This document shows positions 47,695-50,541 of a DNA stretch of 52,672 nucleotides, piece after piece. This DNA comes from Chiloscyllium plagiosum (taxonomy: Eukaryota). Location: contig NW_025214842.1 of assembly GCF_004010195.1 (NCBI RefSeq), positions 1 to 52,672 of the forward strand, in the 5' to 3' direction. The stretch's first letter is position 1; each line of letters starts with the position of its first letter. A model generated the notes under the pieces. The model had not been told where the DNA came from. It saw nothing but the letters and a program-made list of their open reading frames with translations, and made no database searches. Both the position numbers and the translations under genes were made by a program.

Positions 47695-50541
47695 CGGGGC
47701 CCAAGGACTCAGGGACATGCGGGGTTGGCAGACCCCTACATGCAAATGAGGGTAATGGACAAGAATCTGTCTTTTTTGGTTGACACGGGTGCAAGATTTT
47801 CTACCATCACTTGTGACATACCTCGGTCAAACATGTTATCCTCCAGCGTCCAGTTAGTAGGGTTCTCGGGTAAACCAGAAAATCTGCCCTTGACATCGCC
47901 ACTGATCACATCAGTGGCCGGACAGACCTTCCGTCACCGGTATATTTCATCACCTGCATGTCCTGTCAATCTGATGGGCCGCGACTTGCTGGTGAGATGC
48001 GGGGCCACGGTTCTGTGCGGGCCAGACGGACTGGTAGTGGCCTTTCCGAATGGCTACTCTGTCAACTGTTCCATGACAATGATTCACTCTGGATCCCAAA
48101 TGATGCTATCAGCGGACACATCACCAATGGCAGAAGGGCAGTGGGCAGATATATACTGGGGACTCCTAGAACCCAAAAGCAGGCAGAACAATGGCATACA
48201 GTCCTTATATAACCAATGGCGACCCTGGGTTCAGATGCTGCATCCCGATGCTCCTCCTGCAGATCCTCTCCATGTTACCCTACATTATGATAGAGATGAC
48301 AATGAAATCTATCAGCATGCATTCTATCAGCACCTAGAAGGGACTCAATGGGATATTTCCTCCAGTTGCATTCTGCTAGGGAAAGAAGGTGTGGCGGGTG
48401 TGGTTGAACTAACTGCAGAACAGTTGGAATGGTATGAGATGTCTAAAGAAGCTATACCTCATCTCACACTGGCCGTGCATGCTAAATATGAGGCCAAGGA
48501 TCTGGGACCTATGTCCAAACGTTTGATGGCGCTAACTGATTGGGTTTGGACTCAGCTACCCGGTTTACAATATTCACCATCAGGGGAAGCCTATAGAATT
48601 ATGTACAGGACAACTGACAAGGTACTGCTGGAACATAGGCAGATTGAAAGGTTTCACGGCAGGGAAAAAACAGACCATCCACAGGCTGCAGCGATGCTTG
48701 ACACTCTACCAGATACCTTCTGGTCAGCAAGTTCAACGGACGTTGGTCACTGCAAACACGTCACACCGATCACATTCGATTTAATAGACCACACTCCGAT
48801 TTAGCAGAGACAATACTCACACAAACCAGAGGCTGAAGCCGGCATTGCTGACACAATTGAAGGATTGTTAGCAGTAGGAGTGCTAGAACCCTCCCGGTCA
48901 GCCTGGAACACTCCTATCTTACCTGTAGAGAAGCAGAATACAGGTAAATATAGGATGGCGCATGATCTTAGACGGATCAATAGTGTTGCCTCTACTCCAA
49001 CAGTTCCAGTTCCAAACCCATACACGGCGATGTCTGTGCTGACCCCTGACCATAAGTGGTTCTCGTGCATTGATCTGGCCAATACGTTCTTCTGTTTGCC
49101 CCTAGCTGATCATCTGGGGGACATTTTCTCGTTCACCTACAAAGGCCAACAACTACGTTATACAAGGGTCCCTCAAGGGTTCATTTTGTCGCCAGGGGTG
49201 TTTAATCAGGTACTGAAACAGCAGCTGAAGGACCTGACACTCCCAAAGCTGTAGATTAGATTAGATTACTTACAGTGTGGAAACAGGCCCTTCGGCCCAA
49301 CAAGCCCACACCGCCCCGCCGAGGCACAACCCACCCATACCCCTATATTTACCCCTCACCTAACACTACAGGCAATTTAGGGCAATTTAGCATGGCCAAT
49401 TCACCTAACCTGCACATCTTTGGACTGTGGGAGGAAACCGGAGCACCCGGAGGAAACCCACGCAGACACGGGGAGAACGTGCAAACTCCACACAGTCAGT
49501 CGTCTGAGGCGGGAATTGAACCCGGATCTCCGGCGCTGTGAGGCAGCAATGCTAACCACTGTGCCACCGTGCCGCCCACAAAGGGGGTGGTATTGATCCA
49601 GTATGTGGATGACATTCTTCTGGCGGCACCCGACCATGTTTCTTGTCTGGCAGCCACAAAGCCGTTGCTGATTCACCTGTATAACGTCGGTTTCAAAGTC
49701 TCACGGGCTAAATTGCAATGCTGCAGTCTTTTCTGGGTAGAGTTATTTCCGCTAAAGGAACAGGTGTGTCTCCGTCCCATAGATCCTCCATTCTGCATCA
49801 TACTAAACCAGTCACTGTAAAAGACATGCTCTCATTTCTTGGGTTGGCAGGATACAGCAGACAATTCGTTGCATCGTATGGGGAGCTCACTTTCCCTCTC
49901 AGGGCCATGGTAAATGAGCAAGGCATGAGAAATTTGTCGGCCCATTTGCAGTGGACCACAGAGACAGACGAAAGTTTCATATCTCTCAAACAGGCCCTAA
50001 CGCGGGCTGCTGATTTAGCGGTCCCGGATTCCAAAGAGCCATTTTTCCTCGATATTTCTGAAGAATCACACACAATAAATGGTGTTCTTTTTCAGAAAAA
50101 AGCGGGAGGCAGGCAGGTGCTGGTGTATGTAAGTGTTACCCTTGACCCAGTAGAGGACAAACACCCGTCATGTAAAGACATGCAGCAGGGATAGCAAAAA
50201 TTATCCAAAAGGTAGCGCATATAGTCATGGGCCATTCACTAACGGTACACAGTATAGTGGCCTATGTGAACTCAACAGCCTTCACAATGACGTCACTGCC
50301 TAACCAGGTTAGAGAAAATCCTGAATGCACCACATATAACTTTCACACACGAAGGAATCAACATGGCTGACAACATGGGAGAAGGAGAGCCACACATATG
50401 TGAGGAAAGGGTACAGAGAGACGTCAAAGTTAGGGCAGACGTACGGGCAAAACCACTAGTAGACCCAGAAGAAGAGCTGTTCACAGATGGTTGCTGTTAC
50501 AGACATCCAACTGAAGGACTCAAAGCAGCCTATGCAGTGGT
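47695..50541 (+). pseudogene. pol: ERV pro-pol: protease, 2H-phosphoesterase-like insert, RT and start of RNase H; disrupted and 3'-truncated (no integrase, env or 3' LTR in the window)
   Basis: FLVDTGA (47782) and NLMGRDLL; LHVTL and PHLTL; WNTPILPVEK, HDLRRIN, IDLANTFF, VPQGFILSP, QYVDD (49602-49613); LFTDG (~50480). Premature TAG at 48802-48804, SINE insertion and frameshifts. Confidence 0.92.
49249..49578 (-). mobile_element. Young HE1-type SINE inserted in the ERV RT
   Basis: Full head and tail. TSD CAAAG at 49244-49248 and 49579-49583. Removing it restores LPKGVVLIQYVDD in frame. Confidence 0.95.

Follow-up and report, generated by a model that had tools for sequence, protein, structure and literature searches.

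The endogenous retrovirus (ERV) that we studied in the shark Chiloscyllium plagiosum carries, between its protease and its reverse transcriptase (RT), a domain of 170 residues that is predicted to fold like the 2H phosphoesterase domain of vertebrate CNPase. We propose, with about even confidence, that it was a CNPase-type 2',3'-cyclic phosphodiesterase made within Gag-Pol, with RNA ends, for instance that of the tRNA primer, as its most likely substrate. Since the provirus analysed is dead, this proposal concerns the virus from which the copies stem. As such, the domain is no novelty; it is a shark member of a kind already reported in fish retroviruses. An earlier note on this DNA had said as much, and the point is already in print: 2H domains are reported in fish retroviruses including WDSV (PMC9503650, citing Mazumder 2002), and epsilon-like fish ERVs are described as sometimes encoding CNPase (PMC4977317, citing Basta 2009). 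Our literature search, which covered the main texts of largely open-access papers, turned up neither a functional test nor an example from a shark, and the main text of a survey of zebrafish ERVs makes no mention of a phosphodiesterase or of CNPase (PMC8672886).

The window, i.e. the whole stretch of 52,672 nucleotides that was analysed, contains a provirus on the forward strand that starts with a 5' LTR (44324..44867) bounded by TG...CA, with a TATA at 44630 and an AATAAA at 44752. The alignment of other copies begins at 44322-44324 in three of ten upstream stretches, and a second LTR occurs in seven of ten downstream stretches, where it ends at the equivalent of 44865-44869. Directly downstream of the LTR lies a primer-binding site of the tRNA-Trp type (44871..44888). 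Its sequence in other copies agrees with the 3' portion of host genes that ARAGORN identifies as tRNA-Trp(CCA) (two of three pattern matches). The gag gene (45515..47694) is split over three frames, includes a CCHC zinc knuckle (about 47479-47529), and ends with a TGA (47692-47694) in frame with pro-pol. Then come the retroviral aspartyl protease (47731..48009; Pfam RVP E 2e-9, DTG at 47782) and its C-terminal extension with a polar linker (48010..48138), which is disordered in the model. Within this linker, the protease may cut at a hydrophobic run (about 48100-48108); in the alignment of homologues, three columns there are 83-89% hydrophobic and are followed by gappy polar columns. The predicted 2H domain (48139..48648) has its first HxT motif, H45-V-T47 (LHVTL), at 48271..48279, and its second, H108-L-T110 (PHLTL), at 48460..48468. 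The RT (48649..50100) is broken by a premature stop (48802-48804), by frameshifts, and by the insertion of a SINE-like interspersed repeat (about 49250-49580, strand unassigned), of which there are extra copies at about 38260-38580 and, inverted, at 51455-51730. The RT connection and the start of RNase H follow on the same strand (50100..50545), and pol stops near 50545, where the element is truncated, without integrase, env, or 3' LTR. With gag in three frames, a stop, a repeat insertion and frameshifts in RT, and the truncation, this copy is dead. On either side of it we observed a tandem duplication of ~614-618 bp with 97-98% identity just 5' of the LTR (42809-44040), and an exon encoding an array of C2H2 zinc fingers (84-bp repeats) on the opposite strand, ~1.2 kb beyond the truncated provirus (51714-52607, reverse strand).

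The earlier note had placed a 2H domain at 48139-48660, in an uninterrupted frame between protease and RT, on the basis of two HxT motifs. This stretch of 174 codons is stop-free, the histidine codons start at 48271 (H45) and 48460 (H108), 63 residues apart, and the insert does separate the Pfam RVP match upstream, from which the domain is ~43 codons apart, from the RT downstream. The start of the domain stands, and its end must be moved. When a relative with 91% identity was aligned to the XMRV RT, the alignment began at the equivalent of residue 171, and the last strand of the fold reaches residue 170 in both models. We therefore set the domain at 48139-48648, with RT homology from 48649. 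The frame is also uninterrupted only in part: from the gag stop it stays open as far as 48802-48804, where a premature stop closes it some 50 codons inside RT. The Pfam match to RT lies past this stop. Two HxT words in 170 residues could alone be due to chance, and it is the conservation of the motifs, described below, that raises the domain above it.

The AlphaFold2 model of the domain, obtained from an alignment of 73 rows, has a pLDDT of 95.7 and a pTM of 0.89, and each HxT motif begins a predicted strand (45-51 and 108-114). When this model was compared with 48,161 solved chains, the top match was mouse CNPase (Z 17.3, rmsd 2.8, 165 residues aligned), and the next-best entry had a Z of only 8.8. 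Other 2H proteins scored lower, including phage Acb1 (8.1), MHV ns2 (7.7), AKAP18 (7.2), rotavirus VP3 (6.9-7.1), and the penguinpox cGAMP phosphodiesterase (6.5), and the 21 chains with Z >= 5 are all either 2H-type entries or unnamed. Foldseek on the PDB gave CNPase or fish RICH in all 42 rows listed (E 2e-7), and on the viral models of BFVD it gave three significant matches, namely Q2VF30_1 and the Env proteins of WEHV-1 and WDSV. Structures of fungal Trl1 are absent among the fold-search matches listed, an absence that excludes nothing. These searches agree with the 2H fold expected from the motifs and predict, within it, a domain of the CNPase type. The domain is not identifiable by sequence searches alone. 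Pfam gave only sub-threshold matches of the LigT type for the window domain (E 0.03), CNPase (PF05881) matched one of 37 homologues (E 0.011) and not the window domain, and PF08302 matched neither the window domain nor the homologues scanned. Sequence searches of the PDB returned one irrelevant match, and the domain profile returned none. The top neighbours in the Atlas (scores of 0.96-0.97) carry the cyclic phosphodiesterase of tRNA ligases, PF08302, in 18-63% of their members, and we take this as a lead.

The resemblance to CNPase extends to part of the active site. In CNPase, Phe235 and Val321 are described as sandwiching the base and Arg307 as a helper, whereas helix alpha7 is reported to be specific to CNPase and tied to 2',3'-cyclic specificity (PMC4643303). 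We located the equivalent places by numbering from the histidines and by an hhalign profile alignment to the CNPase exon of the host itself, which has a probability of only 21%, pairs H108 with the second motif, and is gap-free past it. At the place of Phe235 lies Y50 (His+5), in a column where 61 of 72 homologues have an aromatic residue. A predicted helix (119-130) occupies the place of alpha7, aligned to the host exon without gaps, and its residues A119, L122, and G123 are kept in 59, 66, and 66 of about 72 homologues. The other two places differ: K120 is found at that of Val321, where 67 of the 72 homologues have Lys or Arg, and I106 at that of Arg307, in a variable and non-basic column. 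Because two residues of the pocket differ, specificity may have shifted, and we do not file the domain as an orthologue of CNPase. The models suggest a CNPase-like domain with a changed pocket, which would at best work like CNPase.

A search of representative proteins gave 274 clusters with the domain (E <= 0.001), the top 150 of which were listed, and its conservation was analysed in 164 homologues that aligned, many of them decayed ERV gene models. HxT/S was found at the first motif in 119 of the 135 homologues spanning it, at the second in 133 of 145, and at both in 96 of 117, so that the pair is conserved in related ERVs. H45 and H108 are conserved at 96% and 94%, against a column median of 46%, and few columns of the domain are as well conserved as those of the catalytic His and Thr/Ser, even in homologues with only 28% identity. 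The context is conserved too: where there was room to see it, a protease lies upstream in 47 of 55 homologues and an RT downstream in 64 of 73. Two of the entries (P0150, P0101) look like artefacts: one is a homologue fragment that a gene model fuses to a cytochrome P450, the other a repetitive protein of 1665 residues that scores by its repeats.

Selection was assessed with 46 copies of the main family in the shark genome, a biased choice as these are the best-scoring ones, counting as shared the variants present in three or more copies. H45 is present in 44 of the 46, T47 in 45 (with one Ser), and H108 and T110 in all. Among shared variants, the pN/pS is 0.13 in the 2H domain (23 nonsynonymous and 49 synonymous variants), 0.19 in the protease, 0.15 in RT, and 0.13 in the linker. 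Among private variants, the corresponding values are 0.87, 1.23, 0.97, and 0.85. The difference between shared and private variants in the domain (p 2e-11) points to constraint during replication and neutral decay later, and the pattern is the same when CpG sites are removed. The domain was thus under purifying selection as strong as that on RT while the family spread, and decayed neutrally after insertion. Since the linker has an equally low value, selection reveals a stretch of protein that was needed and not catalysis as such.

The genome of the host has at least 151 matches to the domain, fragments included (150 of 391 candidates were scored), and nearly all belong to one family with about 80-94% identity. 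This is a true retrovirus family, because integrase, env, and 3' LTRs occur in other copies: they were seen among ten copies analysed with their flanks, with Pfam TLV_coat in three of the five frames scanned. The attribution to a shark retrovirus agrees with the nearest named proteins, which are from Chiloscyllium punctatum (87-94% identity). Together with the LTR and primer-binding site of the window, these genes are hallmarks of class I (epsilon-like) retroviruses, an assignment to be read with the solved RTs closest to it, which are those of MLV/XMRV, and with its neighbours in a tree that has no reference virus, which are fish ERVs. The LTR pairs are 95.2-96.6% identical in the six of ten copies where they could be compared, which corresponds to roughly 80-110 million years at an assumed shark rate (taken from PMC4422223), a figure that depends on this rate. 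A second, distant ERV family is represented by four listed copies (L031-L034, on C7, C8, C91749, and C63577), with identities of 33-37% in the domain and 41% in RT. The domain is here also placed between protease and RT, with both motifs. One of these loci, L032, consists of two partial copies in tandem.

The unrooted RT tree was built with the 36 rows where both domains are well covered, leaving out those lacking RT (Narcine P0003 and others). The main shark family has as its sister a group of teleost elements, remora and grouper clusters among them (support 97/95, 76-78% identity in RT), and the second family clusters with a ray ERV. A single clade of cartilaginous-fish elements, a group named after the tree was seen, is rejected by the AU test (p 5e-58). 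This suggests movement of ERVs between sharks and bony fish, for which we claim no direction. Six of the 13 well-supported splits of the RT tree recur in the 2H tree, and there are three strong conflicts. Because the two trees agree only in part, they do not demonstrate strict co-inheritance of the domain and RT.

How would such a domain have reached its substrate? Of 42 copies, 39 retain the TGA that precedes the in-frame pro-pol, with CGG after it in 27. UGA-CGG is a readthrough context, and MLV-type viruses use UAG for readthrough; the gag UGA is a likely readthrough signal. Readthrough would place the domain within Gag-Pol and package it, and the protease would then cut at the hydrophobic run ahead of it. 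The domain would probably stay fused to RT, because the junction between them is short (about 12 residues), polar (0-7% hydrophobic at most columns), and conserved; the model has low confidence at this junction (pLDDT 65-67), and the protease might thus also cut there. Inside the core, the enzyme would turn dead cyclic-phosphate RNA ends, be it of the tRNA-Trp primer or of other RNAs, into 3'-hydroxyl ends, with free 2',3'-cNMP as a fallback substrate. In walleye viruses, where the same fold is predicted in Env, it would be separate from RT. This weakens the version specific to the primer and argues for a substrate that can be reached from the virion interior or the cytosol generally, and not only for the primer. 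Moreover, a domain of this kind is dispensable for the replication of most retroviruses, which lack it. 2H enzymes are described as cleaning cyclic RNA ends in many viruses, and CNPase is reported to rescue tRNA splicing in yeast when the 2H domain of the ligase is dead (PMC9503650 and PMC4643303, respectively). A more ambitious version, to which we give only tentative credence, is that a clade of fish retroviruses captured a CNPase-like enzyme for RNA end healing and fused it to RT to reopen the cyclic-phosphate ends that host ribonucleases make on the tRNA primer or the genome. This would be a retroviral counterpart of phage RNA repair, and useful enough for walleye viruses to have retained the fold of this enzyme in Env in place of Pol.

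Several other functions deserve to be weighed against this one, and we take them in order of decreasing probability. The domain might degrade cyclic dinucleotides such as 2'3'-cGAMP and blunt DNA sensing during reverse transcription, which we consider unlikely. Phage Acb1 and the penguinpox enzyme do so with the same fold, the Lys/Arg at the place of Val321 could bind a second phosphate, and ray-finned fish keep cGAS-STING. Yet, the structural matches to these two enzymes reach less than half the Z of CNPase, a domain made by readthrough would be produced in small amounts, and helix alpha7 is described as limiting the size of the substrate (PMC4643303). Somewhat harder to credit is a mainly non-catalytic mimic or RNA-binding module, e.g. 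a decoy for a host CNP that restricts retroviral assembly at the membrane. Host CNP is reported to bind the MA of HIV-1 and inhibit particle formation (PMC7471995), the shark genome has its own, single CNPase gene (C33:12.18 Mb), and the fold is also predicted in the Env of WDSV and WEHV-1; in WDSV Env, two helices enclose a 170-residue cytoplasmic loop (PMC3185748), which fits the fold in size. But the columns of the catalytic His and Thr/Ser stay among the most conserved across the homologues, which would be superfluous in a pure decoy.

The analogy drawn in the earlier note, with coronavirus ns2 and rotavirus VP3 as 2',5'-phosphodiesterases that destroy 2-5A and block RNase L, fared poorly, and we now hold it to be very improbable. 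These proteins and AKAP18 belong to the same superfamily, the shark genome has OAS genes (15 exon matches, with a cluster at C25:15.32-15.38 Mb), and the pathway is described as working in a cartilaginous fish (PMC10400998), which leaves room for a 2-5A side activity in sharks. The much better fit of CNPase speaks against it, and so do the hosts. According to the same source, the ancestor of ray-finned fish lost both OAS and RNase L, yet the named carriers are mostly from this group: of 30 homologue clusters looked up, 19 have a name, 18 of them from ray-finned fish and one from a ray. In ray-finned fish proteins whose alignment spans both motifs, HxT/S is intact at both (20 of 20; two Syngnathus models lack the region of the first motif). 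As most named carriers belong to hosts reported to lack OAS-RNase L, 2-5A cannot explain why the domain was retained across the clade, all the more since a 2-5A phosphodiesterase is reported to be quickly lost in coronavirus passage without pressure from RNase L (PMC10592793). That the domain was captured as an inert spacer or is a decayed relic, finally, is barely tenable and already largely refuted. This reading would account for a dead provirus and for the 22 of 46 copies with a stop or gap inside the domain, but such breaks match the neutral decay expected after insertion, while the shared variants bear the mark of purifying selection and the motifs persist across the divergence of 274 clusters. 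Of the activities that the earlier note had considered, the resolution of 2',3'-cyclic phosphate ends is therefore the better-supported one.

A fifth enzyme is rare in retroviral Pol, and the putative one described here recurs in hundreds of fish ERV clusters and was under purifying selection. Its placement with CNPase and the prevalence of hosts without RNase L shift the obvious experiment from 2-5A to RNA ends with a cyclic phosphate. The domain may also inform the cellular role of CNPase, which is still unclear.

Among known systems, the proposed cyclic-phosphate enzyme finds the model for its role in RNA end healing in the cyclic phosphodiesterase of fungal-type tRNA ligases (PF08302) and its phage and euglenozoan look-alikes, although the virus has no ligase or kinase partner. 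MHV ns2, rotavirus VP3, and AKAP7 share with it the 2H superfamily fold and the HxT motifs, at Z of only 6.9-7.7, and the viral 2',5'-phosphodiesterases, which are reported to derive by capture from genes like AKAP7 (PMC10592793), act on a pathway that is absent from most hosts of the shark-type domain. Vertebrate CNPase and fish RICH (PDB 2xmi, 1woj, 2i3e; PF05881) are alike in the predicted fold, the two HxT motifs, the aromatic residue at His+5, and the helix past the second motif. They differ in sequence (13-16% identity), in the spacing of the histidines (63 residues here and 79 in CNPase), and in the pocket, where the viral domain has Lys/Arg at the place of Val321 and a non-basic residue at that of Arg307. 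CNPase has an N-terminal domain and a membrane anchor, whereas the viral domain has protease and RT as its neighbours. The Env polyproteins of WDSV (A4GTG3) and WEHV-1 (Q9WHI8) are predicted to have the same fold (Foldseek E 1e-9 to 1e-10 over 168-174 columns, TM 0.69 and 0.73, respectively, identity 17-20%), but in Env and not in Pol as in the shark; in WDSV, its candidate place is residues 875-1044. A profile search of longer proteins gave 16 matches, all of them Pol-like and none from the Env of walleye viruses. The best match in BFVD, Q2VF30_1, is an unnamed viral entry of 1072 residues (31% identity, TM 0.92). The 2H/CNPase domains of epsilon-like fish retroviruses are the same kind of domain in the same kind of virus, and the shark element adds to them a host among the cartilaginous fish.
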